Positions 1,786 through 56,818 of a stretch of 64,000 nt of DNA are shown here, piece by piece (position 1 is the stretch's first letter; each line of letters begins with the position of its first letter). Origin of the DNA: a virus. The notes under the pieces are model-generated. The model ran no database searches. It had not been told where the DNA came from and saw only the letters and a program-made list of their open reading frames with translations. The position numbers and the translations under genes are program-made. The DNA is taken from positions 1 through 64,000 of IMG/VR virus record IMGVR_UViG_3300048590_000661; one strand, written 5' to 3'.

Positions 1786-2580
1786 GTGGTGATTATGCGT
1801 AAACGAGCGGAGTATTCAGAGGGTTATGTGTTTCCAAATAAACATTGGAAAATTATTAGAGAAATTGAAAAAAGAGGTAAACAACGATGTTTTCGATGTG
1901 CCTGTATGTTATGCAACATGGAATATGATGTGGTATTAGCAAGTTTAAGAAAAGAAAATGGTTGTTTCTGTTGTAAATCTTGTGCTATGTCTAAAGATTT
2001 AGTTGGTCAAAAATTTGGGAGATTATTAGTATTAGAAAAACATTCAATAAGTAAGAATAGAACCAATAAATATTTATGCTTATGCGACTGTCAAAATACA
2101 TGTGTTGTTTTTAGTACTGATTTACGCAGCAAAAAGATAATTTCATGTGGGTGTTACAGAAATGAATTGCTTATTCACAATAATAAATTAAACTGCGGCG
2201 AATTAGCGCCCAATTGGAAGGGTGGCGTAACGCCTCAAAATAAAATCGATAGAGATAAGATTACGCAACAGTTGAACCCATTAGTCCGCGAAAGAGATGG
2301 TGAAACTTGCCAAAAGTGTAGCCAGCACAAAGGATGGTTAGAAGTACACCACATATTCGATTTTGGGACTTATCAAGAATTACGATTTGAAATAAATAAC
2401 CTCATCACGTTATGCAAAAATTGTCATGATGATTTTCATTCTGTTTATTCAAGATACGGCAGCAACACCCTATCCGACTTAGAAGCATGGTTATCTCACG
2501 ATTACAAATATAGAACTGAGCTACTAGCGGCTTACTCAACTGTCATAGCGGCACCTACGTTAAGCGATAGCGTTAGTTAG
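1786..2580 (+). CDS. HNH homing endonuclease (HNH1) with N-terminal Cys/Zn-ribbon modules
   Basis: DLVGQKFGRLLVL, CxCxC, SCGC, RDGETCQKC...LEVHHI...NLITLCKNCHDDFH; start may be ATG 1795. Confidence 0.9.
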   Translation: MVIMRKRAEYSEGYVFPNKHWKIIREIEKRGKQRCFRCACMLCNMEYDVVLASLRKENGCFCCKSCAMSKDLVGQKFGRLLVLEKHSISKNRTNKYLCLCDCQNTCVVFSTDLRSKKIISCGCYRNELLIHNNKLNCGELAPNWKGGVTPQNKIDRDKITQQLNPLVRERDGETCQKCSQHKGWLEVHHIFDFGTYQELRFEINNLITLCKNCHDDFHSVYSRYGSNTLSDLEAWLSHDYKYRTELLAAYSTVIAAPTLSDSVS

Positions 2581-2824
2581 GTAGATTATGACCTTGACGG
2601 ATTTTTAGACACCTCTACGCCCTAGTTTTCTAAATTAGATTATAGGGCTAGAATTTTTCACTCTACCACCCACAGTCTAGCAATCAAAAAACGAGGCTAA
2701 ATCAATCGAAAAAACTTCAGCAATAGTATTTGACCTAAGTAAGAATATCATTCAATCTAGCCCTAATTTTCTACAGTTAATAGGTAAGCCGCATTTATGA
2801 AAATATTACTAGCTAAGTGGCGGC

Positions 2825-2853
2825 TTGACAAAAATAGATAACTGTAGTATACT
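2825..2853 (+). promoter_or_regulatory. strong sigma70-like early promoter
   Basis: TTGACA-17nt-TATACT upstream of the 2898 gene. Confidence 0.8.
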
Positions 2854-2897
2854 AGTTGGAGTTAATGATATTTTTATTTTAGAAAGGTAAGTTACTT

Positions 2898-3176
2898 ATG
2901 GCAAAGCAAGCAAGTGTCTCAATAGAGGAACAGGAAACCACATTCACGGTAGAAGCAACCGACCGAAATACTTTATATGTATTTTCAAATGACCCTACTT
3001 GGATTCGTCGGCTAGATGGTATTACAGAATCATATCGGGAAGATTCATATGGCAAATTTTACAAATTGGATTTATCAGAATTTACTTTCACGTTACGCCC
3101 AAAGCGTAAGATGACAGAGGAACAAAAGCGTGCTAGTGCAGAGCGTTTACAGACGGCACGTTTAGCCACAAAATAA
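2898..3176 (+). CDS. conserved phage hypothetical protein
   Basis: EEQET...YVFSNDPTWIRRL...RKMTEEQKRASAERL pattern; RBS GAAAGG. Confidence 0.75.
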   Translation: MAKQASVSIEEQETTFTVEATDRNTLYVFSNDPTWIRRLDGITESYREDSYGKFYKLDLSEFTFTLRPKRKMTEEQKRASAERLQTARLATK

Positions 3177-3293
3177 GCCCTAGATTCAACGAAAAAGTTC
3201 AAATGGCATCAATGTACCAAATGAACTATTAAGAAGCCATATAGCCCTAGAAAAAGACCTAACAACAGAGGATTATAGACAGGAAAATAAAAG

Positions 3294-3596
3294 ATGACAA
3301 CCAAGATTAATTATACACCAGAGCTAAAAGAGTTTTTCAAGACTTTTACCGATAAAAAATTAGACCGTCGCTGGTATTTGGTAGTAGAGAAAGATGGTGT
3401 TAACAAGCTAACATATAGCCTATGTCAGAAGTTGATTAATGTAACTGATGAGGATATTGAGGAAATGATTAAAGAAGAATCAAAAAATATGTATGATAAT
3501 GAAGATTTTGAAGAAGAACAAGTAATAAACCTGATGCGGGAATTACGCCAACGATATGAGATATTTATTAAAGAGATTATGGATGACCAGTCATGA
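3294..3596 (+). CDS. hypothetical protein
   Basis: 100-aa ORF, ATGA overlap with the next gene. Confidence 0.7.
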   Translation: MTTKINYTPELKEFFKTFTDKKLDRRWYLVVEKDGVNKLTYSLCQKLINVTDEDIEEMIKEESKNMYDNEDFEEEQVINLMRELRQRYEIFIKEIMDDQS

Positions 3597-4804: not shown

Positions 4805-5130
4805 GGGCATTAGTTTATGTATTCGCTATTGTTTTATTATATTTAGTAGCTTCATTATTTCTAGATATGATTGATAAAAAGATTACAATAGTAGATGAGG
4901 ATGTTAGTGTACCAAGTATCGTCGCTAATCCTAATGAGGTAGTGCCAGCTATTGAGACGATTCCAAATTGGGAAAATAGCTTTTCGCCGCCGAGTAGATT
5001 TTACCAAGATAATGGACAGATTTTCGACAGGTGTCCTAATCCAGAAGCATTACAGCAATGCGATCTCATTTTGAGACAACTTGGTTTGCCATTTGAACCG
5101 GAACAAGATAAATTGGACTACAGTAAATAA
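4801..5130 (+). CDS. membrane-anchored hypothetical protein
   Basis: N-terminal hydrophobic helix ALVYVFAIVLLYLVASLFL; RBS AAGGAG. Confidence 0.7.
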   Translation: MRALVYVFAIVLLYLVASLFLDMIDKKITIVDEDVSVPSIVANPNEVVPAIETIPNWENSFSPPSRFYQDNGQIFDRCPNPEALQQCDLILRQLGLPFEPEQDKLDYSK

Positions 5131-5139
5131 AGGTCACTC

Positions 5140-5203
5140 ATCGGAGAGAATACGGCAATAATTGTAAATTAGCGGTTTTGTAGTGAAGCTTACAGTAATA
5201 GAA
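5140..5203 (+). repeat. 64-bp intergenic direct repeat, copy 2
   Basis: 48/64 identical to 3792-3855. Confidence 0.7.
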
Positions 5204-5215
5204 TGGAGCGAATAA

Positions 5216-5665
5216 ATGAGCGAAGCAATAGGATTGCGGCTACATGCCGACCATTTAATGCGTGTGCAATTGCACATGAATAAAATCATAAATAACTTAC
5301 TTAGTAGGCTTGTATGCCATGATAGTAGCAAATATAATACTGAAGAAATATCATTAATTATTGGAAAGGCAATGTTAAATAATACTACTTACGGAAGTGC
5401 CGAATATAACATTGCGTTAAAATCTGTTCAAGACGGAGTGTTAAGCCACTACAGTAAAAATACACACCATCCTGAACATTATGTTAATGGTATTGTTGGT
5501 ATGTCATTATTTGATTTGTTAGAAATGTTGGCGGATTGGAAGTCTGCTGGTGAGCAAAATGGAGGTGATATTCTTTCATCATTGACGATTAATATTGATA
5601 GATATAATATTCCAGAGCCTATTGCTAAGATTATATCTAATACAATACAAGAATTAAACTGGTAA
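5216..5665 (+). CDS. HD-like protein (DUF5662-type)
   Basis: HDSSK...HYSKNTHHPEHY...DLLEMLADW. Confidence 0.75.
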   Translation: MSEAIGLRLHADHLMRVQLHMNKIINNLLSRLVCHDSSKYNTEEISLIIGKAMLNNTTYGSAEYNIALKSVQDGVLSHYSKNTHHPEHYVNGIVGMSLFDLLEMLADWKSAGEQNGGDILSSLTINIDRYNIPEPIAKIISNTIQELNW

Positions 5666-5715
5666 AAATATCCCACATGAAAGCGATTGATAACGTCTTT
5701 ATGTGGGATATTTTT
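5664..5715. terminator. bidirectional terminator between convergent genes
   Basis: AAAAATATCCCACAT / ATGTGGGATATTTTT inverted repeat. Confidence 0.8.
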
Positions 5716-5718
5716 ATT

Positions 5719-6297
5719 CTATCCCCATTGACTAGCCATTGCATTAGCGATAGATTTAAAACTTTTGCTTCTAGTTTTACCACCACGAGTAGCGTCAGTA
5801 AAGTGACGGTTCTTACCATTGCTATCTACATAATAAGGTTCTGGTTTATTCTTTTTATTGGCGATATCATAAGTTAGTAATGGTAGATTCTTTAGCCATA
5901 AACAAGTACGTTTCATTTCTGGCTCACCAAAATAATAAGGGTGAATTATCTGGTCAGGTTTTCGGTATACTGTATTAGGGTAGCCTACTGGGTTTTCTAC
6001 ACAAATTTTTTCAATGGGTGCATTAATGAATAATATAAAAAACTCTAAAGCCTGTTCTCTTAGTTCTGCTCTACCTGGATTATTCCATGAACTAGTGGCT
6101 GCATAACTAAGGTAAGTACATGGTGGATGAGCTATTAATAAGTCCCACCCATCATAAAGTATATCAAGTACATTACCTTGATAATGTGGACCTTCTGATT
6201 CTGTTGGCAAAAGATCACAAGACATTGCGTCATGCCCTAATTTTAGAAACGCATCGCGAGTTGTACCACTATATTCACATGCCACTAATACTTTCAT
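5719..6297 (-). CDS. phage-type DNA (cytosine-5) methyltransferase
   Basis: MKVLVACEYSGTTRDAF, IAHPPCTYLS (catalytic PC), ENPVG, RSKSFKSIANAMASQWG. Confidence 0.85.
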   Translation of the reverse strand: MKVLVACEYSGTTRDAFLKLGHDAMSCDLLPTESEGPHYQGNVLDILYDGWDLLIAHPPCTYLSYAATSSWNNPGRAELREQALEFFILFINAPIEKICVENPVGYPNTVYRKPDQIIHPYYFGEPEMKRTCLWLKNLPLLTYDIANKKNKPEPYYVDSNGKNRHFTDATRGGKTRSKSFKSIANAMASQWG

Positions 6298-6299
6298 TT

Positions 6300-6797
6300 T
6301 TACCCCTTATATGATTTAATAATCTGACCATCTACTTTAACAATTTTTCTATCTTCTAACATCCTCATATGGTTTTCATAATTAGTTTTTCGTTTCTTAT
6401 AGATATAAAATTTGAAAACAAGAAACAAACCACCAACAATTAACCCAATAGAAGAGATAAGAGTTAGAGTAACTAATACTGGCGATCTAATATATTGTGT
6501 ATTAGGCACTGAGTTAATAACATGTATTTCTTTAACAATCGTTATTACTTTAGTTTCTACAATAGTTAATGGTTTATTAGCTAATTCTTTACTTAAGTCT
6601 TGGTTAAGTATTGCTAATTCTCTATTTGTTTTCTCTAGTTGAGTAATAGTATTATTTCTGTCTTCTAATCTAATCTTTTTTAATTCATCATTTTCATTAT
6701 ACAAAGCCAATAATAAAATAATCAATATAATAGAGATTACTGCGGTTCCGTTAATTAATGGTGACATTCGATGCAACCTCCCAAGCAAACTTCTCAA
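6300..6797 (-). CDS. membrane protein (TM - coiled coil - TM)
   Basis: Two hydrophobic segments flank a heptad region; likely start ATG 6767. Confidence 0.7.
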   Translation of the reverse strand: MRSLLGRLHRMSPLINGTAVISIILIILLLALYNENDELKKIRLEDRNNTITQLEKTNRELAILNQDLSKELANKPLTIVETKVITIVKEIHVINSVPNTQYIRSPVLVTLTLISSIGLIVGGLFLVFKFYIYKKRKTNYENHMRMLEDRKIVKVDGQIIKSYKG

Positions 6798-7047
6798 AAG
6801 TATCTACGTTAGTATACCACCGCATATTATTACCATTAAATATAATCTTATTATCTACTAATAGTTTAAAGATATATTCTTTTTCTACGTTTGCTAATTC
6901 CTTATTGCGTGCTGACCATAAAAGAAACTTACGTGGTGTATTTTTAAAGTAATATTTTTCTACATTTGGGTCATATACCAATTCATTCGCGAATCGCACT
7001 TCCATATCTTTTAATAATAGTTCAATTAATTCTAAATTATTTTTCAT
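6751..7047 (-). CDS. hypothetical protein
   Basis: 98-aa ORF overlapping both neighbours, RBS GAGG. Confidence 0.65.
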   Translation of the reverse strand: MKNNLELIELLLKDMEVRFANELVYDPNVEKYYFKNTPRKFLLWSARNKELANVEKEYIFKLLVDNKIIFNGNNMRWYTNVDTFEKFAWEVASNVTIN

Positions 7048-7315
7048 GGTTTAGTTCCTCTTTCTTTGCTTTAATGATTCCTAAGATTAATAATGTAATA
7101 ATAAGTAATGGGCCTAGTGTTCCGTAAATAATATATGGTGTATATGGTAGATAGGTTAATATTAATTTAATCATAATAACGGCTAATAAAAGTATATTAA
7201 TAAATCCTTCTTTTGTATCCATAAACCAGAATAGTTTCTGTGATTCTGCGAACGATATAATATTAAGCCCTAATAGGATAAAGAATATTACATTAAGCAC
7301 TAATGGTTCTAACAT
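7037..7315 (-). CDS. small 3-TM membrane protein
   Basis: Three hydrophobic stretches and a basic C-terminus. Confidence 0.7.
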   Translation of the reverse strand: MLEPLVLNVIFFILLGLNIISFAESQKLFWFMDTKEGFINILLLAVIMIKLILTYLPYTPYIIYGTLGPLLIITLLILGIIKAKKEELNHEK

Positions 7316-7316
7316 T

Positions 7317-7910
7317 TTATTTCCTCTTAAATTCTTTAAAGATAATTAATGCTTTATTTTGGTTTTCGGCATTAAGGGTATTTGATTTAGTTGACTTCAA
7401 TAGCCCACAGTTAACAAGTAACTGTTTAGCTTCCTCAAATTCATTGCGTGTTAATCGTAAATGTGCTTTAGCTAGCTCCGCGGTTATCTTCATGTTCTTT
7501 TCGTAGTGTGCCACGATTAGACGCAAGGCATTAGTTTCGGCACCGCTGTTAACTAGGCTAGACTTATTGATGACGGTAGCAATTTCTTTCGTAGCTTTTT
7601 CGTTACATAATAGCTTGCCGCTTTGCACCCCTAACCAGAAGATTGCTGCACTAAGCCCAATTTCATCACCAAAGAAACGGTAGATATTAAATAGTGCAGC
7701 AATAACTAGCCCAACTACTAATACGGTCCCTGTGAATGGTGCATTAATCAAGAATGTCCAGCCACTTAAGTAAAAGTACAGGATTATGGATACACTAAGC
7801 CCACCGACCATATTTTGCATTAGGGGTACTAAAATGCTGCTATGGGCAGTTTGGGTTGCTCGTTTATTTTTAATTATTTCGCTTCTTAGTGTATCCATGT
7901 TACTAGTCAT
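7317..7910 (-). CDS. membrane protein with putative C-terminal winged-helix
   Basis: 2-3 TM helices, then ITAELAKAHLRLTRNEFEEAKQLLVNCGLL. Confidence 0.65.
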   Translation of the reverse strand: MTSNMDTLRSEIIKNKRATQTAHSSILVPLMQNMVGGLSVSIILYFYLSGWTFLINAPFTGTVLVVGLVIAALFNIYRFFGDEIGLSAAIFWLGVQSGKLLCNEKATKEIATVINKSSLVNSGAETNALRLIVAHYEKNMKITAELAKAHLRLTRNEFEEAKQLLVNCGLLKSTKSNTLNAENQNKALIIFKEFKRK

Positions 7911-7911
7911 A

Positions 7912-9225
7912 TTACTTAATATATTCCTCTTGCACTCCAGTGTCTAAAAATGCTACCTGTAATCTTTTCCCGTTTAGTAATGCATCCCCACTACCTAATA
8001 ACTTCGTTGCATCACTGTTGCCAATAATCAATTGGCTATCTACATCTGCAATTACCTTTAATGCTAACCTGCCTGGGATGTTGGTTTTAATTAGCCCAGT
8101 AATTACTTTCTTATTAGGCTTCTGAGTGGTAATGACGATATGAATACCAGTTGCCCTACACTTAGAAGCCAATACACTTAACTTGTTTTCTAGCTCTGAT
8201 TTTAATTTGCTATCGTCAATTAACATAATGCTAGATAGTTCTTCAATGACGAATAAGATAAAGGGTAATTTTTCTTTACTACTTGCGTTATACTCCTGAA
8301 TGTTTTTAGCCCCTATCTTTTGCATCTTCTCTAACCTTTGTTGCATTACTTTTAATAGGTATTCTAACTGGGCATGGAACTCATCTACCTCATATGCAAT
8401 ATTTCCAATTAGGTGTTCACTATTCTTAAACGCTACTAGCTCTACTAATTTAAAATCTGCCAACACTAGTTTTAACTCATTAACCTTCTTATTCATCAAC
8501 ATTGAAGTCATGAATACTTGTAGTGCATTACTCTTCCCACTATTCGTTTCACCAGCAATTAAAAGGTGTGGAAAATTAGTAGCATCACCACATACCACAT
8601 TATCGTTTAAATCATACCCTAGACAGAATGGCAAACCATCAGCATATTTCTTTACTATTTGTTTATAATTTTTCTCATTAACCATTTCTTTAAAACTAAG
8701 GCTCTTAAATTCAGGGTTAATAATCGCTATGCCTAATTTGTTCTTTTCAGGAATTAAGCGAATACTTTCACCTAACGCTAATTCTATTTCAGGCTTAATG
8801 TTTTCTACTTGTGAAATCTTGGTAAATTTCTTTCTGTTATTAACTATTGTAAACCCTAACCCGTAGTAGAAAATCACTTGATTACTTGTTACCTTAGTCT
8901 CTAAAAATGTCATAGGTATATCGTAATTCTCTAAGACGTTATCAATCTTTATTCTTGTACTACTATAATCGTTATTTTCTACTCGAATCCCTCGCACTTC
9001 CTCACGAATATTTGATAATAGATCTTCATACTCTTCATCAAACACTACATATGCCAATTTATCCGCATATTTTTTGCCTTCATACAACAGTATTAATAAA
9101 GAAATAGTGGCACTAACTATTAGGGCAATACTATTTCCTATTAATATCAAAAGTATAATGGCTAACTTTAAAAAAACCACCGTAGTATCTACAGTGCCGT
9201 GAAACGCAAAATTTTCTTTTTTCAT
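7912..9225 (-). CDS. FtsK/SpoIIIE-family DNA translocase ATPase, membrane-anchored, no gamma domain
   Basis: PHLLIAGETNSGKS (Walker A), DFKLVEL, FVIEELS (Walker B), RATGIHIVITTQKP, LLGSGDAL; N-terminal TM. Confidence 0.92.
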   Translation of the reverse strand: MKKENFAFHGTVDTTVVFLKLAIILLILIGNSIALIVSATISLLILLYEGKKYADKLAYVVFDEEYEDLLSNIREEVRGIRVENNDYSSTRIKIDNVLENYDIPMTFLETKVTSNQVIFYYGLGFTIVNNRKKFTKISQVENIKPEIELALGESIRLIPEKNKLGIAIINPEFKSLSFKEMVNEKNYKQIVKKYADGLPFCLGYDLNDNVVCGDATNFPHLLIAGETNSGKSNALQVFMTSMLMNKKVNELKLVLADFKLVELVAFKNSEHLIGNIAYEVDEFHAQLEYLLKVMQQRLEKMQKIGAKNIQEYNASSKEKLPFILFVIEELSSIMLIDDSKLKSELENKLSVLASKCRATGIHIVITTQKPNKKVITGLIKTNIPGRLALKVIADVDSQLIIGNSDATKLLGSGDALLNGKRLQVAFLDTGVQEEYIK

Positions 9226-9344
9226 AATTTTTCCGGTTCTGTGTTATTCTTTTTTTACACATGCGCAATATTTCTTGCACAAGCTAAAGTTTTTCACACA
9301 GGCGATAGTGATAGGAGCAATGATGTGTTGAACTTACGTAATGT

Positions 9345-9373
9345 ATTATACCATAACTTAAGAAATATGTCAA
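9345..9373 (-). promoter_or_regulatory. consensus sigma70 promoter for the FtsK operon
   Basis: TTGACA-17nt-TATAAT with extended TG. Confidence 0.85.
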
Positions 9374-9413
9374 GACGTTATGGCGTATAATTAAGACGAG
9401 TTAAGGGGCAATA

Positions 9414-9974
9414 ATGTTCAAACAGCTAAAGAATGAAAGTGATGATGCATACCTAGCCTTTATATCATACGTAAATGCAGATGGTGTATCGTTGGACGCA
9501 GCCTATAAAATGTTCTGTGAAGAAGTAGGTATTGAAAATGAGCCTATCCCTGACATTTGGTATGTATGGTCAAGTAAATATAATTGGGACCATAGACTGC
9601 AAGCCGAAAAAGACCTAACGGATGACGTGGAAGTAATTTCGCCTACGGATTATAATAGACGAATCCAAGCTTTCCAACAACGCCAAACTAGGCTTAATGA
9701 GGAATTATTTAAAACTACTCGTTTGGCATTAAAGCGGATTAAGTCGCGTCTTGTTACTTTAGACCCTGATGAGATTCCAGCGGGTGCTATTCCAAATTAT
9801 ATTAATAGTGTAGCAAAAATTGTAGAACTATTCACTAAAAACGAAGCTGATCAATTGGCACTAGAAGAAATAATGGAAGCATTAGACAAGCTTAAGGGTG
9901 AAGAGTCTGGTACGAAAAAGGTAGCGATTAAACCTGTACCATTTAACTTTGAAAGATTAGCGAATGGCAATTAA
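9414..9974 (+). CDS. terS: terminase small subunit (putative)
   Basis: ESDDAYLAF...WSSKYNWDHR motif; directly upstream of and overlapping TerL. Confidence 0.65.
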   Translation: MFKQLKNESDDAYLAFISYVNADGVSLDAAYKMFCEEVGIENEPIPDIWYVWSSKYNWDHRLQAEKDLTDDVEVISPTDYNRRIQAFQQRQTRLNEELFKTTRLALKRIKSRLVTLDPDEIPAGAIPNYINSVAKIVELFTKNEADQLALEEIMEALDKLKGEESGTKKVAIKPVPFNFERLANGN

Positions 9975-11526
9975 TAACGTTAAGCGCATTAAAGAAAAAA
10001 TGCGGGATGAAAACCCATACCTTCGTCAACTAGAAAACCTTAATAAGCAAGAAGAGATAGATTATTCTATTTATAAGGGCTACCCATGTGAGTTTGCTAG
10101 AGATATATTAGGGGTAGATTGGTGGGAAAAACAATGCTATATTGCACACCTAGCAGAAACGCAACAAAAAGTATTAGTGCGTGCTTCTCATATGGTAGGC
10201 AAAAGCTATATGTTATCTGGTTATTGTATTTATAATTGGCGTACAGAACCAGTATTACGGGGTAGCGTTCTTAGCCCAACTTTAACACTCACTAAAGATG
10301 TAATTTTTTCTCAAATTAGAAAATTCATGGGTGAAGATGCTGATATTGTTGGTACTGCTAGCCCAACACTATATAACCCAAAAACACCAGATAAAGTATT
10401 GAAAGGACTATCTGTTAGCGAAGCTGTAGCTTTGCAAGGTAGGCATACTTCTGGTATGGCACTTATTATTATTGACGAAGCAACGGGTATTTCACCAGAG
10501 TATTTTGAAGCATTAGAAAGTATTTCTCATGGTGGAACAGGTAGTAGATGGATTTGCGCCTATAATCCAATTGACCCTAGTTCTATGGTGGCACAATTAG
10601 AAAATGACCCTGATTGGTCTATTATTGTTATTTCTGCATTAGAACATCCTAATGTTCGATATTATGATAACGATCCAGAAGACCCATTTGTTCCAATCCC
10701 AGGTGCTATTACTGGTAAGCGGTTTAATGAATTAATGCGAGGGTGGTCTACTCCAATTGAAGAAAAAGATAAAAAAAATACAGATATTAGACTTCCTGGT
10801 ACTGATCAATGGGTTAGACCGAGTTCAATTGGTGAAGCTAGGTTATTAGGTAGATGGCCTACTATTGGGTATGAAAGTATTTGGACGGATGCTATATTTC
10901 AAGTAGTAGAATCGACTATATTATCTTATGATTATAAAAACCACTTACCAGAAGTAGGTGTAGATGTTGCTAGATATGGCAATGACCATAGTGCCATTGC
11001 CATTCGTCAAGGTGGAAAATTAATAGACGTTGAAGAATACTATGGATTATCAGTAATAGAATTAAGTAATTTAGTAGGGCAAAAAATTAAAGAGGTTGCT
11101 AGTTCTAATAATGTAGATGCAGAGCATATTCCTATTAAGATTGATGCGAATGGTGTAGGTGCAGGGGTAGTCGATATTCTTGATGATTTAGACTACAATA
11201 CAGTAGAGATTCAAGTGTCAGAACGAGCGTATGAGTCTGAAAAATATGTCGATAAGCGTAGTGAATTATGGATGACATTGCGTGATAAGGCATTGGCAAG
11301 TGAAATATCTTTTGCGGGTTTGAATAGGTATATTGGGAATAAATTACGAATAGAACTATTAGCACCTAAATATTCTTATAATAGTCGTGGACAAATCGTA
11401 GTAGAATCTAAAAAAGATACAAAGAAACGTACAAAACTTAATAGCCCTAATTTAGCCGATGCTGTTAATTTAGCTTTTTATGAGGCAGAGCCAAGTATTA
11501 CAACAACAGTTCGTAGAACTAATTAG
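9964..11526 (+). CDS. terL: terminase large subunit
   Basis: ASHMVGKS Walker A, IIIDEA Walker B, GVDVARYGND nuclease, SPNLADA. Confidence 0.95.
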   Translation: MAINNVKRIKEKMRDENPYLRQLENLNKQEEIDYSIYKGYPCEFARDILGVDWWEKQCYIAHLAETQQKVLVRASHMVGKSYMLSGYCIYNWRTEPVLRGSVLSPTLTLTKDVIFSQIRKFMGEDADIVGTASPTLYNPKTPDKVLKGLSVSEAVALQGRHTSGMALIIIDEATGISPEYFEALESISHGGTGSRWICAYNPIDPSSMVAQLENDPDWSIIVISALEHPNVRYYDNDPEDPFVPIPGAITGKRFNELMRGWSTPIEEKDKKNTDIRLPGTDQWVRPSSIGEARLLGRWPTIGYESIWTDAIFQVVESTILSYDYKNHLPEVGVDVARYGNDHSAIAIRQGGKLIDVEEYYGLSVIELSNLVGQKIKEVASSNNVDAEHIPIKIDANGVGAGVVDILDDLDYNTVEIQVSERAYESEKYVDKRSELWMTLRDKALASEISFAGLNRYIGNKLRIELLAPKYSYNSRGQIVVESKKDTKKRTKLNSPNLADAVNLAFYEAEPSITTTVRRTN

Positions 11527-33566: not shown

Positions 33567-33788
33567 TTGAAAATGGGTAAAAATTTGGTAGTAATTGACT
33601 TAGAGAATTTACCAGAAGAGTTAGCCGTTGCGCATGACTTTTTTGTAAATAATATTTTAACAGAATATGTAAAATATTATACACATGGTAATAAGGCTGC
33701 TGGCGCACGGTTACGTAAAAATAGTTTAACACTTAAGAAGTTTGCAGAAAATTTACGCAAACAAGTACGTGAAGATTTAAATAAATAA
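33567..33788 (+). CDS. histone H1-like (Hc1-family) nucleoid protein
   Basis: GNKAAGARLRKNSLTLKKFAENLRKQV motif; RBS AAGGA. Confidence 0.7.
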   Translation: MKMGKNLVVIDLENLPEELAVAHDFFVNNILTEYVKYYTHGNKAAGARLRKNSLTLKKFAENLRKQVREDLNK

Positions 33789-35458: not shown

Positions 35459-38400
35459 ATGGCATTAGTTAAGAGTGGTTTAGAAATTGAAATTAAAGGT
35501 ATTAAACAAGCACTAGATGAACTTGGTATGTTAGACCGTATCCAAGATCAATTAGCTCTATCTGCTGATAATGTAATTATTACCATTAGTGGCATGAATA
35601 AATCTATTGGTGCCCTAAATCAAAAAACTGGAACACTTAATAATGCTCTTAATCCAGATAGGTTTACTAACTTTGGTAACGCTGCTAATATAGCAGATAG
35701 TAAATTAGATGGTTTTAGTCAGGCTGTTCAAGCAACAGTCCCACACTTAAGAAATATAGCAACGGCAAGCAATGACCTTAATACTAGTGGGCTTAATACC
35801 TTATCTAACCTACAGATTAAAGATGAATCTATTAGAATTGCTGCAACTAGTGTAGAAAAATTAAAGCAAGAATTTCAAGAGCTAAATGTTATTCTTGACG
35901 GTCCTGTTGTTAAAAATATTCAAGAATTTACGGCTGCATTATCGAAAGCTAATATTGGTAATGGGTCATTTGGTACAGAAATTAACCAATTAGCATTAGG
36001 TTTTAGAAAACTTAATGAAATTAAAGACTTAAGCGCGATATCTGCTAACCTAAATAAGTTCCTAGATGTACTTAGGCGATTATCGGCTATTGAAGTTGGT
36101 GGTGCATTATCTGATTTAGATAGGTTAGCCCCTGCACTTAAGGCTGCTGGTGATGGGTTTAGGGAGTTTAATAAAACCACTAATATAAAAAACACTAGTG
36201 GGTTAGATGGGTTTATTAATGTAGTTAAAGAAATTGCTAAAGTACCACTAACAAAAATTAGTGGTGAATTGCCTATATTTGCAGTAGCTTTAGGTACATT
36301 AGCAGAAGCATTTAAAAAGTTTGCATCTGGTGCTCCTGGTGAAAAATTACCTTCTGCATTAAAAGCTGTTACATTAGCACTATCTGAATTAGTAAAAATA
36401 TCCGCTAAAGATGCAGGTAAAGGGATTGTAGATTTAGGTACAGCATTAGGTAGCGTTGCTACGCCGCTATCTAATTTTGCTAAAGCTATGCGTGATTTTA
36501 CTACTGGTAAAGGTATTACAGATTTACCTGCTAGAGCTAAAGATATTAAGGCTGCAATGCTAGATATTCGCAATGCCTTTAATTTTAAAGACATAGATAC
36601 GTTAGCACCCAAACTTCAACAACTTTCACCAGCACTTAGAGATTTTGCTAATGCATTTAAAGCATTCTCTACTGGTAAAAATACAAACTCTTTACCTGCT
36701 AATATTGCAGCAGTTTCAAAAGCACTGAATGATTTTTCTAAAATAAAGTTAGGTGATTTATCTGCTGATTTAACAACTTTGGGACCAGGAATAGAAAAGT
36801 TAGCTTTAGCATTTAGGGCTTTTACTACTGGCACTAATATTGGTGATTTACCACAACGTATCCAAGCAATTGTTAACGCTATTAATTCACTTAAGAATGT
36901 TAGAATAGAAAGCTTAGGACCAGAGCTACAAAGTGTGGTAAAACCTTTAGGCGAATTTTTTGGTGCCTTTCGCCTATTTTCTGGTAGTGAAAAATTTGCC
37001 GATATTGGTAAGCGATTCGGTGAGCTTCAAAAGGGGCTTAACGATATTAAGAAGCTTAATTTAGGTTCATTTGCTAAAGAACTTAAAGAAGTTTCTGTAG
37101 GCTTAGAATCATTAGTTAAGGCAGCGGCTTTAGTAAATAGTAAAAACCTTAGTAGCATTAGCGCAACGCTTACTGCATTACGAGCAGAATCACAAAAAGC
37201 TACATTAGCTAATCGAGCATTAGCACTTAGTTATACCTATTTAATTAACCCAGTAAAAAATGTAGCAAATGGGCTAGGTGGGTTGGCGGCTGCTATTATT
37301 AGGCTACCAATTAATATTTTTATTAACCAGCTAAAATTCTTACGTGCAGTATTTATTGGTTTCCCAATTGCAGTATTAACTAAGGGATTTCAATTATTTT
37401 TTGGTGCTATTAATTTAGTACAAAAAGCATTCTCTGGTTTTTCTACGTTAGTAGCTAAAGTAGCTAATATATTTAAAGCGTTAAGCCAAACAATGAATAA
37501 CTTAGGTATTATTGTTAAAGCCTTATTATTCCCAATTGTTGCACTTGTTAATGCCTTCAATAGCATTATTAATGTTGGTAGTAAAGTATCCTCTATCTTT
37601 ACTGCATTTAAAGTAAATCAAGTTGCTAATGATACAAAAGTATTATCAGAGAACTTAAAAAATACTAATGTAGAACTAACTAAAACAGCAGCAACTACAA
37701 CTAGAGCTAATGCTGAATTTGTTAAAACCGATGCTGTATTAACACAAGTAGGACAAGAATCCCAACGGGCTACTACTGGTGTACGTGGCATGTCTGGTGC
37801 ATTATCGGCTATTAATGTAGCACAGGTTACACTATTAGGTTTAGGTATTGCTGGTGCTACTAAGAAAATATTAGCATTTGCTGCTGCTGCTAAAAGTTTA
37901 GAAGTCATTAGTAATGTTTTTCAACGCTTAAACATGGTAGTTCGGCAATTTGGTGGGCAAATAATTGGTGGCGCATTTGAGGCAACTAGTACATTTGAAC
38001 AACAAACCCTACAAATCACTTCGCTATTAGCTAAAGAATTTGTCAAGTTAGGTAAAGCTGGCAGTGTGCAAGAAGCTTTACAATTAGATGAGCTTAATGC
38101 GACATTTAATGAATCATTAGCCATTATTAAAAGACTAGCCATTGAAAGTCCTTTTGATAATAAAGATATTATTACAGTTTTTAGAATGGCATCTAGCTTC
38201 GGGTTTATGCGTGAAGAAGCTTTAGATATGACTAGGATCTTAACTGATGCTAGTGCTGCTTTAGGTTTAACAGGTAGTGATGCTTCTGAAATTGCTAAGG
38301 TATTTGGTCAAATTAAATCGTTAGGCAAGCTATTAGCTGGTGATGTTAATCAATTAGCCCAACGTGGTATTAATGTTAAAACCATCCTTAAAGATGTAGG

Positions 38401-41400
38401 CTTGACAATGGCCGATGTGCAAGGTGGTGCATTAGATGCTGATCAAGCTATCCAATTAATTCTTACCAGTTTAGATAGAGATTTTGGTGGAAGTGCTGCT
38501 AGAGCTACAAATACATTAGCTGGTCTAGCTAGTACATTTACTAGTCTTAGAGATGATGTTTTAAGGACTACATTTACCCCATTATTTGATGCACTTAAAC
38601 CATTTGGAGCAGAACTATTAGCACCATTTCAAAATACAGACTTCTTAGAAAAAGTAACACAATTTGGCGAGGTACTTAGAGATAATGTATTAGGGGTAAT
38701 AACGGGTATAGTTCGCCCCATTGTGTTCTTGACTACTGCCTTTATCAATTTACCAAAACCTATCCAACAAGCTATATTCTTTGCTGCTAAGTTTGCCGCT
38801 ACTGCATTAGCAGTATCTACAGCCGTAGCAGTAGTGCAAGCTGGTATAGTGCTTTTTGGTACTACTTTGGCATTTATCTTCAACCCTATTTCCCTTACTG
38901 TTGGTGCATTAATATCGTTAGCAACGGTTGCATATACTGGTCGTGAGGCTATCACTAGTTTTGCCAACGCTATTGGTGGGAGTATTTATGCTCGACTTTT
39001 AGACTTAGCTAAAGTATTCCCCGTTATTGGTAATGCGTTAAATGGGCTACAAAGTGTATTTATTAGGATTAAAACTGGGTTTAATTCGTTATTTGAGCCA
39101 TCCGAAGCTACAAAACTAGCTAGATCAGTTGATACCTTCGTTCAATCTACTAATACATCTTTATCAAGTACAACAGGTTCTTTTAATGAGGTATCTTTTG
39201 CTGCGAATACAACGGCAAAAGCGCTAGGGTTAACGGGCACACTAGCTAAGAATATGGTGGCTTCTTTTATTCCTATGCGTAGAGAGTTGTCATTAGTTGC
39301 CTTAACTGGTGAGCAAGTAACTGAAGCATTAGATATTAAACCAACTGGGTTAGAAAATACTATCTCAACAATTAGCACCAGTATTAATGGGTTTAATAAT
39401 AGTATTAATAATTTATTTAGCGGTATTCAAAACACTATTCAGCCTGGAATAGATGCCGTTAGCGCTGGTGCCAACTCAATAGTGGCTGCATTTAATACTG
39501 CTGGGGTAGAAGTTACAAGCATTGGGCAATCTATACTATTAATATTTGGTGGGATAGGGCAAACTATTCTTGATGAGCTAGGTAAACTAGGCACAGGAAT
39601 ATCAGAAAGGTTAGGCGGGTTAGGTACTTTCTTTGCAGACTTCTTAACTAGCGTAACCGACTTTGGTGGTGGGTTAATTGATGCCTTCTCGCAAGGTATT
39701 TTAACATCCCTTAACTATGTAGCCGATGCCCTATTAGCTATTGCAGAATTAGTAACCTTTTGGCTAGAACCTGGGAGTCCGCCTAGATTACTTCCTGACA
39801 TTGATAAATGGGGTGCTGGATTAATCCTATCATGGATTGATGGTATGACTGCAACTATCGGCCCCGCATTTCAAGGTTTGGGTGGTATTATTGAAAAAGC
39901 GGCTGCTGGTATATTTTCTGTATTTATAGCAATAGGTAAATTCACTTTCGATACCATTATTAATAGCATCATTGCATTTGGTGGAATATTTACCCAAGTA
40001 TTTTCTAGTTTAGTCGCTGTAGGCACTGCTTTTATTGGTCAAATAGCTTTAATATTTAACTTAATCGCTAATAGCTTTCTAGTAGCTATTGACCCTGCGC
40101 TATCTTTTAAAGATAAATTTATTCGTATCCTTAATGAAGTGGGTTATTTCATTAGTGGCACATTCGTAAACGTTGGTGTATTAGTAGCTAGTGTTGCGCA
40201 AGATATTGTTAACTCACTATTAATAGTTAGCCAGTTTGTCATTAATGAGTTTGTTATTGGTTTTAATGCTATTAAAATGATATTCCCACAATTAGATGGG
40301 TTATCAACAAGAATAGCAGATTTTTCTAATAAAAGCTTGGCTAATCTACAAACTTTTGGTAATGGTGCGGCCACATTCTTTGCAGACTTACTAGATACTG
40401 TTACAGACTATGGTAGTGCTTTAATATCAGCTTTTAGCGATGGTATTATTGGTGCGGTTTCTGTAGTATCACAAGCCCTTAGTTATTTAGGTGATCAAAT
40501 AGCATATTGGTTAGCTCCTGGTTCGCCACCTCGCCTATTGCCTGAAATTGATAAATGGGGTACTGCTGCGGCTGGTGAATTTCTTGGTGGGTTTAGTTCT
40601 GCTGATTTCAGCAAAATTGAAGATTTTGGTTCTACCGCTGAAAAACTTTTAGAGAATATTAACTTAGACCCTGGAATAGATATTAATTTTCAAGGCATAT
40701 TTGAGGGGTTTGCTGGCGCATTAGCTCAAGGTAGTTTAGGTGAAGATACCTTTGCCGAAGTTAGCGCAGTAGCCCCACAAGCGGCAGCAGAGCTTCAACT
40801 ATTAGCTAGCACATATTTTTCTGTAGAAGATGCTAGTAAAAAACTAGAAGAAGCTAATGAAAAAGTTGCGGCTAGCCAAGCTAAAGTAACGGAAGAAACT
40901 GAAAAAATAGCTGAAGCTACTAAAACATATGATGACCAAATTGCAGAATTAGAAGGTCGTTTAACTGATATTGATACTGCATCTACTTATGATGCTGAAA
41001 TTAAGAAAATTGCCCAATTACAAGATGTCATTAATTCACGTTATACAAGCGAGTATGAACAAATGCAAGCGCAACGTGAAATTGAAAAGATTCGTAATAC
41101 ACAACAGCTACGGCAACTAAAAGCCGCAAAAGCTGCAAATGAGGCTAATTTACGGGCTGCTGAAGCGGAACTATCTGCCAATGAAAAAATGGCCCAACAA
41201 AGTGAAAGTAATGTAGATAAATCACAAGAAGAATTAGATGCCCTTAAAGCTAGGTTAGACCTTGCTGCTAAATTTGCTAGTGAAAATAGTGGTCTTGGCG
41301 CTGATGGCTCATTAGGTGGTAGCGATGCCGATGAAGATGGCAAGAAGCTTAAAGGTAAAAAGATAAAAATACCTAAAGGTGAAGATTTAGTTGATGCCTT

Positions 41401-44400
41401 CGATTTAGATTCTGCCTTAGCAATAGGTGAAGCTGGGTTTGCTAACTTTAATAATAAAATTCGTACTGCTTTTGATGATTTTAGGGATAAAATTCAAGGG
41501 GTCCGTGATGGCGTTAATGCTTTCTTCGATAATATTAGGGAGAAATTTGGAAGGTTACAAGAAGTATTTAAACCAGTAACGGATGCAGTTTATAAACTAT
41601 TTACAAACACAAACTTCTTAAAGACTGCATTCGTTGCTTTAGGGGTTATTTTAGCTGGGCCATTAATAATTGGTGCATTAACTACATTAGCTACAATTAT
41701 CGGTGGAATTGTAATAGCTTTAGGCCCATTTACAGGAACTTTATTACTATTAACTGGTGCATTAGGTGGTGCTGGGTTTGGCGCATACTTATTAGGTCAA
41801 AATTTAGCAGAAGCTAGTGGGTTATTTGGTGAAAGTTCAGCAATACTAAATGATGTAGTCAATAGCCTATTGACGATAGGATCAACCATTGGTACAGTAC
41901 TGTCTAATTTTGGCAGCGGTTTTATTACTGGGCTATTTGCAGATGGTCAAACTTTCTTATCTGCAATTCTTGGTTTTGATGTAACAGACCTATCTACTAT
42001 TTCTGCTAGTTTAGGGAACCTAGCCGCCGAGCTTGTACAAGAGTTTATTAGGTTTAACTTAATAATATTCAAAAGCTTTACAGGGATACTATTAGGAAAT
42101 AACCCTATTGATACATTCTTAACTGAATTAACAGGCAAGGATTATTCTGGCACTTTTGAGCAATTTGCGACTAAATTAGGTAATGACTTACGTAATTATG
42201 TCATCAAAGCATTTAACCTTTTTGAGTCTAATATAGCTAGTAGTGGAGTATTAGCGGGTGTAACTAAAACTTTAGGAACCCTTATTTCTGAAGCATTTGC
42301 TAATTTAGGCAATGCCGTAGCTGGAGTTGCTAACTTTGATTTGTCTACTATCTCATTTGATTTAGGTGGCATTACCCTTACTGGTGGGCCAGAATTAGGC
42401 ACTAAATTAGCTGGGTTATTAGGCGAAAGTTTTAACTTCTTAACTACTATTGATTTTAGCACACCTGCTACCGTCATTCAAAGTACTTTTGAAACAGCCT
42501 TCAATACTATTCAACCTATCGTTAGCCAAAAATTCTTAGAATTTATGACGCTAGTATTTGGGTCAAATAGTCAAAGCGTTATTGATGGCTTAACTACTAC
42601 CCTAGATAATATTGGGTTAGCTTTTGATCGTCTTTTCAATAATATTAATAAGCAAGGGTTAGCTGGTGGTATTCTTCAAACTATCTTTGGTGATGGTGCA
42701 CAAGCTATCTTAGCTAACTTTAGTATTGCTCTTTCTGGTTTAGAATCTGTATTTGGCTTAGTAGGTAGCGCTTTTAATACATTCTTAGCCAATATTGAAG
42801 CTAGTGGATTAGCAGATAGCCTTATTAACTTAGGCAACCAAATACTATATGCTAGCCAAGAAATACTTAAATTAATTGGACCATTAGTGGCTGGTGCGGT
42901 AGGTGGAGCTTTTGTATTATTATTAGAAGTATTTAAAGAATTACCATTTATCCTAACTAATGTCATAGACTTATTTGCCAACTTATTTGAAAGAATAGGT
43001 AATATTGCGAAAGCTATTACAGATTTGGTATTAGGCAATATTAGTTTCGGACAATTTTTAAGTGAGTTCTTTGGTAATATCTTAGGTATATTCTCTGACA
43101 TTGGAGTCTTTATTGATGGTATTGGAGATAATATTGCTAATGCAGTTAAAGGGTTTATATCTACTATTGGTGATTTAATTGGTATTGATGTACAACCATT
43201 CTTAGATAGTTTTGGCTTTATTATTGACATTATTGCTGATATTACATCTAGCCTTCTATTAGGTTGGGTATTTAAGCTTGCTACCCAATTTAACCGCTTA
43301 ACCAATATTTTTACTAAAACCAGTAAGCCATTAACAGAATTAGATAAAGCATTTATCTTTATTGGGCAAAAGGTGGCAAATTTATTTACTGGTATTAGTA
43401 GATTATTTGGTAGCTTTGGAAAATTGGGCACCAGCATTAAAAATGTTTTACCATCTACTACTAGCTTTACTAATGCCATCAATACAATTGGTGGTTTAGC
43501 TGGAGGTGTATTAAAGGCATTTTTTACATTTGCTACATCTAGTTTTGCTAAGTTTAATGCCACATTATTGGGTGTACTAGGAATAGCACTATTATTAAAG
43601 AATGGCATCATAGAAACTTTCACTGCTATTCGCGATGGTATTTCAGAGAAAATTAATGCTATTAATACATTCTTTAGTGCATTAGAACTAACTAACCCAT
43701 TCGCTTCACTATCAACTGCTATATTTGGTGAAGAAGGGTTTGTTAGTAAAATACAAGCTGTACCTGCTAGTTTTGATGGCTTATTTGCTAGTGTCGTTAT
43801 TGCAAACCCATTAGCTTTCTTTGATGACTTTTTCCCATTATTCAAACTTGCAATAGGTGAAGTTCCTGGGTATTTCACAGGGCTATTAGATACAATAACA
43901 ATAGTTAACCCATTTGACGCACTTAATGACTTCTTATTTAGTGAAACTGGATTTGTGAGTAAAGTATTAGGAATTGGTTCTTCGTTCGTTACAACTGCCG
44001 AAGATATTACTGGGATTAATATTATTGACCCATTTGAAGCGATTAAAATTACGCTAGGGTTAGTAAAAATAGCAGTAGATGAAATTCCTGGGCTAATAAC
44101 TAATTTAAGTAAAGCAATTAATGAGTTAACTGTTACTGATGTATTTGCCGCTATTGCTGAATCTACAAACTTCTTAGTAGAAGGCGCACAAAACCTATTA
44201 GAAATAGATTTAAGCGGCTTTAGTAATGTATTTGCTCCTGTCACTGCTACAATTGATGGTCTAGTAGAGAAATTTAATAACTTAACACAAACCTTTAAAG
44301 ATGCAGCAAACTTAGTTCCTGGTATTAATATTGGTGGTGCAGAATTAAGTGGCGTAGAAGTTATTCAAGAAAAAATCAAGACGGAGTTCGGAAATACACC

Positions 44401-51436: not shown

Positions 51437-51985
51437 ATGAGTGAAACCGAAAATAAAGAAGAAGTAAAGTTAGGTGGGATTTTGCCATCCATCTTTAATA
51501 GTGACAAAATCCCACGATGGTCATTAGGTGTCGCCGCTATCGTTATTGTATTAACGGTGTTATTTAATGGGCTAAATTTGGGCACCATTATTCAAAATAA
51601 ACTAGAAAATGATAACGCATTACAATTACAAATTATTAACCAGAGATATCAATCTGATTTACAAGCAATGAATACTTTGGTTAATCTTAATGAAGAATTG
51701 AATGACAGGCTACAAAACGTTTTAACTGCATACAATGAACAAGCAGTTACAAATAGCCAATTGAGCGATAGCAATTTAAAATTAAATCGTGAAGTAGATG
51801 CACTTAAAATTCAATTGAGTAGCAAGGACTTAGCTATCTCAGCTTTAGAACAGAGCAATAGAGAGCTTAATGATAAAGTATTATTATTAACATCTCAAAA
51901 TGAGGATTTACAGAAACAAATTGATACCCTTAATCGACGAATTGATACGTTATTCTCACAGATTCAGGAAGAACCACTACCATGA
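51437..51985 (+). CDS. membrane-anchored coiled-coil lysis-associated protein (holin/spanin-like)
   Basis: Single TM plus long coiled coil; ATGA overlap with the endolysin. Confidence 0.55.
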   Translation: MSETENKEEVKLGGILPSIFNSDKIPRWSLGVAAIVIVLTVLFNGLNLGTIIQNKLENDNALQLQIINQRYQSDLQAMNTLVNLNEELNDRLQNVLTAYNEQAVTNSQLSDSNLKLNREVDALKIQLSSKDLAISALEQSNRELNDKVLLLTSQNEDLQKQIDTLNRRIDTLFSQIQEEPLP

Positions 51986-55938: not shown

Positions 55939-56271
55939 TTATTCCAATAATCTATCTACAAATTCACAATCAAGTACTAATGTATATTTAATAACTTCAT
56001 TCTCACCTGGCGAAACGTTTGTTATTTCTAGCCTATCTGTTTTGCAATTTAAAAACTCATAGACTATATCACCATTATTAACGACAAATAAGTTACTTCC
56101 ATCAATAAAATGTTGCACATAATCTATCATTTCTTTTGTAAATACAGATAGATATACCACAGCATCGCCATCAGAAAATATTGTGATTTTATCAATCTCT
56201 GCTTGCTCTAGCTCTATTTTATCGTGGAATACTTTATTAGCAATATTTTTATAATATAGCATATTCATCAC
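55939..56271 (-). CDS. hypothetical protein
   Basis: Coupled ORF. Confidence 0.6.
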   Translation of the reverse strand: MMNMLYYKNIANKVFHDKIELEQAEIDKITIFSDGDAVVYLSVFTKEMIDYVQHFIDGSNLFVVNNGDIVYEFLNCKTDRLEITNVSPGENEVIKYTLVLDCEFVDRLLE

Positions 56272-56818
56272 CTTTCAGAAAGTCATAGCCTAAGTCAATT
56301 AATAGTTGATATAATTCTTTACGAGTATTATTATGTAAAGATATTTTATTTAGGTTCTTTTGTAACCACTCTGTACTATCCCAATTACCTTGATATGTTC
56401 TATTAGCACCATGCCAATCTGCCACCATTTCTCTGATATACTTACTTGGCATTGCTAGGATGTATTTAGGTGAAATTACCCAATGTTCATGGTGGTGTGG
56501 GTTATGGATTACATGATGGTGCCAAGCATAACCAAACCCTAACTTAATTTCATCAGTTACATTCTCATAAGTAAATCGTTTAATATAATGTGGGAGTTCA
56601 TCATGATTTAATTTACTTAAGTCATGTATTGATAATAGATTTGGTATACCCCCAATTTTATTTCCAAATTCTATCACATATGACACATGCTGTATCAACC
56701 CATCAATATATTTACGAGTTAGATTATAGTCTATTTCAAACATATCTGTATAATATAAGACTGTTTCGTCTGTAATATCTAAAATAGGATTATTAACCAT
56801 TAATAACTTCACTTTCAT
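56249..56818 (-). CDS. HD-like protein (DUF5662-type), second copy
   Basis: HDLSK...AWHHHVIHNPHHHEHW...REMVADWHGA. Confidence 0.8.
   Translation of the reverse strand: MKVKLLMVNNPILDITDETVLYYTDMFEIDYNLTRKYIDGLIQHVSYVIEFGNKIGGIPNLLSIHDLSKLNHDELPHYIKRFTYENVTDEIKLGFGYAWHHHVIHNPHHHEHWVISPKYILAMPSKYIREMVADWHGANRTYQGNWDSTEWLQKNLNKISLHNNTRKELYQLLIDLGYDFLKGDEYAIL

Follow-up and report, generated by a model that had tools for sequence, protein, structure and literature searches.

A membrane-anchored FtsK-like motor and a membrane protein with a predicted winged helix form a conserved gene pair in a tailed phage

The virus record IMGVR_UViG_3300048590_000661, from a large uncultured tailed phage, comprises 124,598 bp with terminal repeats and is rated complete. 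Within its first 64 kb, the stretch analysed here and called the window, six minus-strand open reading frames (ORFs) form a cassette that runs from position 9373 to position 5719 and is led by the gene of a predicted FtsK-like double-stranded DNA (dsDNA) translocase, the motor. A preliminary description of the window had taken the six genes together for a possible machine that spreads phage DNA from cell to cell. Our analysis shows that the conserved unit is not the set of six genes but a pair, formed by the motor and the product of the following gene, p197, a membrane protein with a predicted winged helix at its C-terminus. The pairing is real and previously undescribed; outside subscription journals we found no description in the literature of an anchored motor lacking the gamma domain together with a winged-helix membrane partner. 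Most likely the cassette handles phage DNA at the cell membrane, and we tentatively favour a DNA pump in the membrane that is served in trans by a winged-helix partner.

The motor (437 amino acids [aa]; 7912..9225, minus strand) consists of an anchor, a linker, a divergent alpha region, and a beta ATPase. Residues 197-370 match PF01580 with an E-value of 7e-29 and 101.2 bits, against a gathering cut-off of 24, and the protein matches phrog_1358, "FtsK/SpoIIIE-like", at E 8e-67. When NCBIfam models were compared, FtsK scored 132 bits, EssC 79 bits, and plasmid TraB (NF041214) 37.8 bits, the last against a cut-off of 800. The best solved structure was Pseudomonas aeruginosa FtsK (PDB 2IUU) with 138 bits, and both the TcpA-type coupling protein (86 bits) and EssC/EccC scored lower. 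The Walker A (GETNSGKS) and Walker B (VIEEL) sequences and R357 align to the motifs of P. aeruginosa FtsK. R357 falls on the arginine of the ARAAGIH segment, which we take to be the inter-subunit arginine "finger", and K231, E328, E329, R357, and Q368 are invariant in all eight members of the motor family. At the N-terminus there is a single hydrophobic stretch, residues 8-51, which at 44 residues would provide about two membrane spans; the 4TM domain PF13491 had no match in the motor at E <= 0.01. Because the alignment to P. aeruginosa FtsK ends about 21 residues before the C-terminus and PF09397 has no match, we conclude that the gamma domain is absent. Hence, the motor is membrane-anchored and stops shortly after its ATPase, as had been described.

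A search among 5.8 billion protein clusters identified seven close relatives of the motor (46-72% identity, 423-435 aa), none of which matched the Pfam models of the gamma (PF09397), 4TM, or alpha domains. The next matches were cellular FtsKs with about 33% identity. Scanning viral contigs with the single protein gave no relatives, and profile scans of viral, metagenome, and genome contigs gave only relatives of 25-38% identity. We placed the family in a FastTree phylogeny of 85 rows, which has long branches and carries FastTree support values only. The eight proteins formed one clade with a support of 100 and a long stem, outside the cellular FtsK set and outside the Firmicutes-type phage FtsK-like proteins. 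The clade was not nested among the Chloroflexota FtsKs, which top the named matches. The tree gave no host signal, and nothing in our analysis pointed to the Chloroflexota or to the filamentous host assumed in the preliminary description.

The gene of p197 (197 aa; 7317..7910, minus strand) starts 1 nt after the stop of the motor gene. The protein has two to three transmembrane (TM) segments and a C-terminal domain of winged-helix type at residues ~123-197. An exhaustive profile search retrieved 20 representatives, five of them below E 1e-30; p197 had no Pfam match and no match in 50,697 GenBank phage records at E up to 1. In the family alignment, the membrane domain carries the conserved motifs VPLxQNxxGG and RFFGDE, and a variable linker joins it to a C-terminal block, likewise conserved, of ~75 residues. 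A p197 relative is located with a motor relative in six of the eight members of the motor family, the window's own protein included. This co-location was read from contigs that matched in length and source (3514, 3446, 3097, 101521, and 3432 bp, plus the record of the window); the remaining two motor relatives, on contigs of 8387 and 13012 bp, had no p197 partner among the members listed. In a metagenome-assembled genome at NCBI that its submitters labelled "Candidatus Riesia sp.", the motor and p197 relatives (MCB1711068.1 and MCB1711069.1) follow each other by locus tag on a contig of 24,844 bp. The co-location, the adjacent tags, and the structural model of p197 uphold the earlier proposal of a motor with a separate winged-helix membrane partner. 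A complex prediction for motor and p197 (score 0.11, mark 0.32) speaks neither for nor against binding.

We next consider the fold of the p197 C-terminus. AlphaFold2 with 18 sequences modelled residues 123-197 with a predicted local distance difference test score (pLDDT) of 84-94, and the domain alone (118-197, 13 sequences) reached a pLDDT of 90.8 and a predicted template modelling score (pTM) of 0.78. The domain model consists of four helices, the last of which follows a long loop. Foldseek searches of the PDB with the full and the domain model returned no match at E 0.001 or better; the best E was 0.41, and the list consisted nearly entirely of winged-helix regulators. In VIA-align the domain scored best with BusR (Z 7.0, root mean square deviation [rmsd] 3.1, 75 residues) and an Rrf2 protein (Z 6.9), followed by GntR and IclR winged helices at about Z 6. 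The independent model of p197 in the ESM Atlas also gave structure matches to winged helix-turn-helix clusters. From the AlphaFold2 models, the Foldseek list, the VIA-align comparisons, and the Atlas model together, a winged-helix class for this domain is supported, with middling scores, and the C-terminal 75 residues are predicted to adopt this fold, in agreement with what had been noted from the sequence. By the positive-inside rule the domain is probably cytoplasmic. In the comparison with FtsK gamma proposed earlier, the domain aligned to gamma with Z 5.3 (2j5p, rmsd 3.2, 67 of 70 residues) and Z 5.1 (2ve8_C, rmsd 2.6, 61 of 62 residues), and was outscored there by the GntR, Rrf2, and IclR winged helices. 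The p197 family had no PF09397 match and a probability of 2.2% when compared with 96 FtsK gamma tails by hhalign. A specific tie of the p197 domain to FtsK gamma is therefore not supported.

How do the motor and p197 compare with other phage FtsK-like proteins? Such genes are present in 352 of the 50,697 phage records, mostly in Bacillus and Mycobacterium phages. Most of those in IMG/VR encode proteins of 380-410 aa without an N-terminal hydrophobic segment; by our own reading of the table, the segment is present in about 15 of 121 distant FtsK-like proteins, and five of these are short. Of these 121 loci, which are viral or prophage, 105 have an ORF of 60 aa or more directly downstream and 16 do not. 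The downstream gene encodes a Replic_Relax protein (PF13814) of about 200 aa in 77 of the 105 (for example in L037, 7593-9370, L003, and L011), above the Pfam cut-off in 75 cases, and often overlaps the FtsK-like gene at the stop codon. Replic_Relax proteins start with a winged helix. The combination of an FtsK-like ATPase and a coupled partner of ~200 aa thus recurs among phages as a module. An operon of this kind was noted in Bacillus phage RBClin15 (PMC11526630).

The motor-p197 pair shares several features with this module. As in the Replic_Relax pairs of Bacillus phages (pham 370, Cherry gp22; RBClin15), a gamma-less ATPase is followed by a protein of about 200 aa, with abutting or overlapping codons. 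However, the ATPases linked to Replic_Relax are mostly soluble and form a separate clade of 15 rows (support 100) that excludes the family of the anchored motor. Their partners are likewise soluble and not homologous to p197, in which the winged helix is C-terminal and follows the membrane domain; when the p197 family was compared with 31 Replic_Relax partners by hhalign, the probability was below 1%. The cassette is therefore an analogue of the Replic_Relax pair and not a member, and given how common that pair is, we read it as a membrane-bound variant of a common phage module. The cluster J mycobacteriophages provide another case of an FtsK-like motor in phages with their own terminase (Omega gp203, 31% identity), with a reversed architecture: these proteins have no membrane domain and keep a divergent gamma (PMC3706429), whereas the motor in the window is anchored and gamma-less. 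The publications consulted have left the role of phage FtsK-like proteins open (PMC3706429, PMC4464726, PMC11526630). Roles in sporulation or segregation were suggested for the FtsK/SpoIIIE genes of Bacillus phages (PMC4464726, PMC3601020, PMC11526630), help with DNA injection for phage Pony (PMC3853050), and a possible use in replication for a Streptomyces phage (PMC11536984).

The cassette is one transcription unit. Upstream of the motor gene lies a sigma-70 promoter (9345..9373, minus strand) with TTGACA, a 17-nt spacer, and TATAAT preceded by a TG extension, matching the consensus in 12 of 12 positions. A leader of about 113 nt separates it from the first gene; the leader had no Rfam match and its fold was unremarkable (z = -0.54). 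The six ORFs are packed from 2 nt apart to overlapping: in order, they are spaced by a 1-nt gap, another 1-nt gap, an 11-nt overlap, an overlap of 17-47 nt depending on the start, and a 2-nt gap. The perfect promoter and the tight coupling stand as first described, and the promoter is one of seven perfect sites in the 124.6-kb genome (9373, 60879, 71811, 76882, 78561, and 91069 on the minus strand, 102111 on the plus strand), two of them, 9373 and 60879, inside the window and five beyond it (L082-L084). None of the other six falls in the structural module; they occupy replication and early regions, and the seven form a clear class of early or middle promoters dependent on the host polymerase. 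Since its promoter is of the type found at replication and early genes, the cassette is expected to be read by the host polymerase in early or middle infection. At the other end, an inverted repeat with 19-nt arms (5663-5681/5698-5716, 95% complementary, 16 nt apart) sits between the convergent genes 5216..5665 (plus strand) and 5719..6297 (minus strand) and is likely a two-way terminator that closes the operon. The plus-strand gene that abuts the cassette here (5216-5665) is one of two DUF5662 paralogues (PF18907), the other lying at 56249-56818 on the minus strand (E 2e-25 and 6e-31). A hairpin with a T-run that resembles a terminator occurs within codons 10-16 of the motor gene (9178-9196, minus strand); it may mean nothing, since chance alone would give as many such sites in this region.

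The other four genes are co-transcribed, lineage-specific additions outside the conserved machine. p92 (92 aa; 7037..7315, minus strand) has three hydrophobic segments and a charged C-terminus; no family match and no relative were found. p98 (98 aa; 6751..7047, minus strand) is a soluble orphan without TM segments that matched only itself among the 5.8 billion clusters and nothing in the 50,697 phage records at E up to 1. Its Atlas model (pLDDT 0.63) resembles a Crp-type winged helix with template modelling scores of 0.60 and 0.53, which we regard as a lead only. p165 (165 aa, or 155 aa from the ATG at 6767; 6300..6797, minus strand) comprises a TM segment, a heptad-like helical stretch, a second TM segment, and a basic tail, and gave a weak match to the Rz-like spanins of phrog_13 (E 0.0025) and one match in the phage records at E 0.2. 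These layouts agree with those given before, with the coiled coil of p165 judged by eye and not computed. A lysis cassette formed by p92 and p165 was considered and rejected, as the phage has a muramidase with an adjacent TM/coiled-coil gene at 51437-54336 and the cassette promoter is of early or middle type. The last gene encodes a compact DNA methyltransferase-like protein (192 aa; 5719..6297, minus strand). It matched phrog_757, "DNA methyltransferase", at E 5e-53, and its DNA-level matches were phage genes annotated as DNA or cytosine methyltransferases; Pfam (PF00145), NCBIfam, and the PDB sequences gave no match. A DNA methyltransferase is thus probable, and the C5 type claimed for it is putative, based on these annotations and on PPC and ENP motifs read by eye, which presumably correspond to the C5 consensus (PC, ENV). 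When the five neighbours of the motor, DUF5662, and TerS were searched by tblastn against the 121 distant FtsK loci, none matched. Conservation with the ATPase, expected earlier of the whole neighbourhood, applies to p197 and not to p92, p98, p165, or the methyltransferase-like protein.

Family scans of 202 crude ORFs across the whole genome, which has a G+C content of 33%, indicate a tailed phage of lytic type. The phage looks lytic because no integrase was found; the scans also returned no relaxase or type IV secretion system family, which extends the absence of the latter two, first stated for the window, to the rest of the genome. Matches included TerS, TerL, tape measure, and muramidase, and a DnaE-like polymerase, DnaB, primase, ribonucleotide reductase, thymidylate synthase, and RNA ligase, besides many HNH homing endonucleases, three methyltransferases, and anti-restriction genes. 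TerL matched phrog_2 at E 2e-19 and shares 26-29% identity with annotated terminases. The preliminary description had also named a portal; the 647-aa ORF after TerL matched no family, so this part of the claim is a positional guess only. No tRNA genes were found in the genome. Shine-Dalgarno sequences precede 69 of the 202 crude ORFs, against a background of 3%, and together with the consensus -35/-10 promoters this speaks weakly against a Bacteroidota host and says nothing on filaments.

Several other features of the genome are worth recording. The tape measure is a single ORF of 3,605 aa (35459-46276, plus strand) that matched phrog_5493 at 7e-33 and other families; applying the rule of ~0.15 nm of tail length per residue, the tail would be roughly half a micrometre long. 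A 73-aa protein encoded in the structural module (33567-33788, plus strand) matches the chlamydial histone H1-like protein Hc1 (PF07432, 8e-12) and may condense DNA and be packaged together with the genome. The tail module ends with two overlapping genes (51437-54336, plus strand). The first encodes a protein of 182 aa that has a single TM segment and a long helical region, and it runs into the start of the second, which encodes a protein of 784 aa with SH3_3 and N-acetylmuramidase domains; the two are likely a lysis or wall-piercing unit. The large subunit of ribonucleotide reductase (L082, 14939-17474, minus strand) is encoded in two ORFs split by a LAGLIDADG homing-endonuclease gene, and the genome has at least 10 dispersed HNH endonuclease genes of the phrog_374 type. 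The replicative polymerase (L082, 1728-4691, minus strand) is a DnaE-like Pol III alpha (phrog_405 at 2e-178) whose closest isolated relatives, with 27% identity, occur in Streptomyces siphoviruses of 131-136 kb.

Our favoured reading, held somewhat short of even confidence, is that the motor and the translationally coupled p197 act together as a DNA pump at the cytoplasmic membrane and handle phage DNA within the infected cell. The host RNA polymerase would read the unit from the promoter type used for replication and early genes. p197 would act in trans as the DNA-binding or adaptor component, a role filled by gamma in FtsK and perhaps by the Replic_Relax partner in the common phage pair. 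Once first entry has taken place, the pump could draw in what remains of the 125-kb genome, or it could hold and move replicating phage DNA at the membrane. There is a partial parallel in the small phi29 protein p16.7, which is anchored in the membrane, binds DNA with a C-terminal domain, and organises phage DNA there; it is not known to need an FtsK-type motor.

Several observations weigh against such a pump. The motor family has only eight members, and the fold scores of p197 are middling. As p197 shows no homology to gamma or to Replic_Relax, its role as a partner in trans is suggested by conserved adjacency and fold class only. No repeated or polar motif that a sequence-reading adaptor could use was found. 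Scans with p197 sub-alignments yielded no locus in one case and one locus in another, and a distant p197 relative of 221 aa is present in a temperate siphovirus record (31 kb, 81% complete) without a PF01580 gene; the p197 family can therefore work without the motor, with the caveat that this record is incomplete. There (L127, 7274-9686) the gene of the p197 relative comes after ParA/ParB and a helix-turn-helix gene, and the next two genes encode a membrane protein of 133 aa and a protein of 190 aa that combines a lipobox, a helix rich in Ala/Glu, and a TM segment at the C-terminus.

The resemblance of the motor to cellular FtsK would also suit a takeover of septa, in which the gamma-less motor and p197 sit at division or sporulation septa and clear or move DNA there or compete with host FtsK. 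Infected cells could then keep dividing, division could be blocked, or phage DNA could be brought into the daughter compartment or spore. The alpha-beta motor of FtsK/SpoIIIE (2IUU/2IUT; E. coli 2IUS) aligns to residues 135-416 of the phage protein, FtsK is the top family in both NCBIfam and the PDB, and Walker A, Walker B, the ARAAGIH arginine, and the N-terminal membrane anchor are shared; the roles suggested for the Bacillus phage genes fit as well. In comparison with cellular FtsK, identity is ~30-34%, the linker is short, gamma is lacking, and the phage family is a long-stemmed clade of its own. Against a takeover, the anchor is one 44-residue stretch in place of a 4TM domain, nothing points to septal targeting, and no sporulation-type genes were found in the genome scans. 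We give septal takeover a modest chance. Less probable still is a role in superinfection exclusion or defence, by an early membrane complex that binds, expels, or blocks foreign DNA while the methyltransferase marks the phage's own. The cassette is indeed an island of membrane proteins with a strong host-type promoter, apart from the replication and structural modules, the defence proteins SspH and mad8 have FtsK-type ATPase domains, and the distant p197 relative belongs to a temperate phage's accessory region, a common place for such genes. But the PADLOC matches cover the ATPase domain only, in proteins of different size and make-up, no partner gene matches any defence model, and the phage of the window looks lytic. 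It is about equally doubtful that there is no joint machine at all, with the FtsK-like protein working alone like its soluble phage counterparts and the five downstream genes merely co-transcribed. In favour, four of these five are unconserved and the p197 family also occurs without FtsK; the presence of p197 relatives with the motor in six of eight members, across 46-72% motor identity, and the single nucleotide between motor stop and p197 start argue against it.

The preliminary description had favoured a pump like the TraB/Spd systems of Streptomyces plasmids (pSVH1, pIJ101), which would carry phage dsDNA across the septa of a multicellular filament from one cell to the next. Spd proteins are small membrane or peptidoglycan-binding proteins that spreading requires besides TraB. 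TraB itself depends on a winged helix of its own and on 8-bp clt repeats, and it works with three to seven spd genes, whose products are too diverse to be recognised by sequence (PMC4447253). The cassette resembles transfer operons of the pSVH1 type in combining an FtsK-like ATPase with small, diverse membrane genes and overlapping codons, and in having dsDNA as the likely substrate (PMC4447253). With TerL present, the ATPase is not needed for packaging. However, the motor falls far below the TraB cut-off and scores much higher with FtsK, and its matches to Streptomyces plasmids are weak. TraB carries its own sequence-reading domain, whereas the winged helix of the cassette is on a separate protein. 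In positions 5000-10000 there was no clt-like repeat array beyond chance-level pairs, and over the genome no 7-10-mer was over-represented or polar (best p ~1e-4 among 2,500-3,400 words), so that no clt- or KOPS-like motif rose above chance. Three of the four small genes behind the motor encode membrane proteins, and of these only p197 is conserved with it. The G+C content of 33% is far from that of actinomycetes, the motor family is not nested in the Chloroflexota FtsKs, no GntR-type kil-kor regulator was recognised in the phage, and the phage is of lytic type, with a complete virion and a lysis enzyme. Thus, neither the TraB/Spd analogy nor cell-to-cell spread was borne out, and we consider this explanation very unlikely. 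The same low odds apply to the wider notion of a channel-associated pump, in which the motor, p197, and the other membrane proteins move phage dsDNA across a membrane barrier without a virion; in its boldest form genomes would pass septa to neighbours in a filamentous host, like TraB/Spd, and in a less bold form an active import motor would reel in the rest of the 125-kb genome. TcpA of Clostridium perfringens conjugative plasmids (6O1W) is likewise an anchored, gamma-less ATPase of the FtsK family, and TcpA-type plasmids gave ~100 bits by tblastn. The motor scores higher with FtsK, and no other Tcp or conjugation genes were found in the genome scans.

Overall, the motor-p197 pair provides a clean two-part version in which to test the favoured membrane pump, an anchored motor without a DNA-reading domain next to a conserved membrane partner with a predicted winged helix. 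If the pair does pump phage DNA at the membrane, this would explain a common phage gene, and it could reveal an active step in genome entry or in the handling of phage DNA inside the cell.

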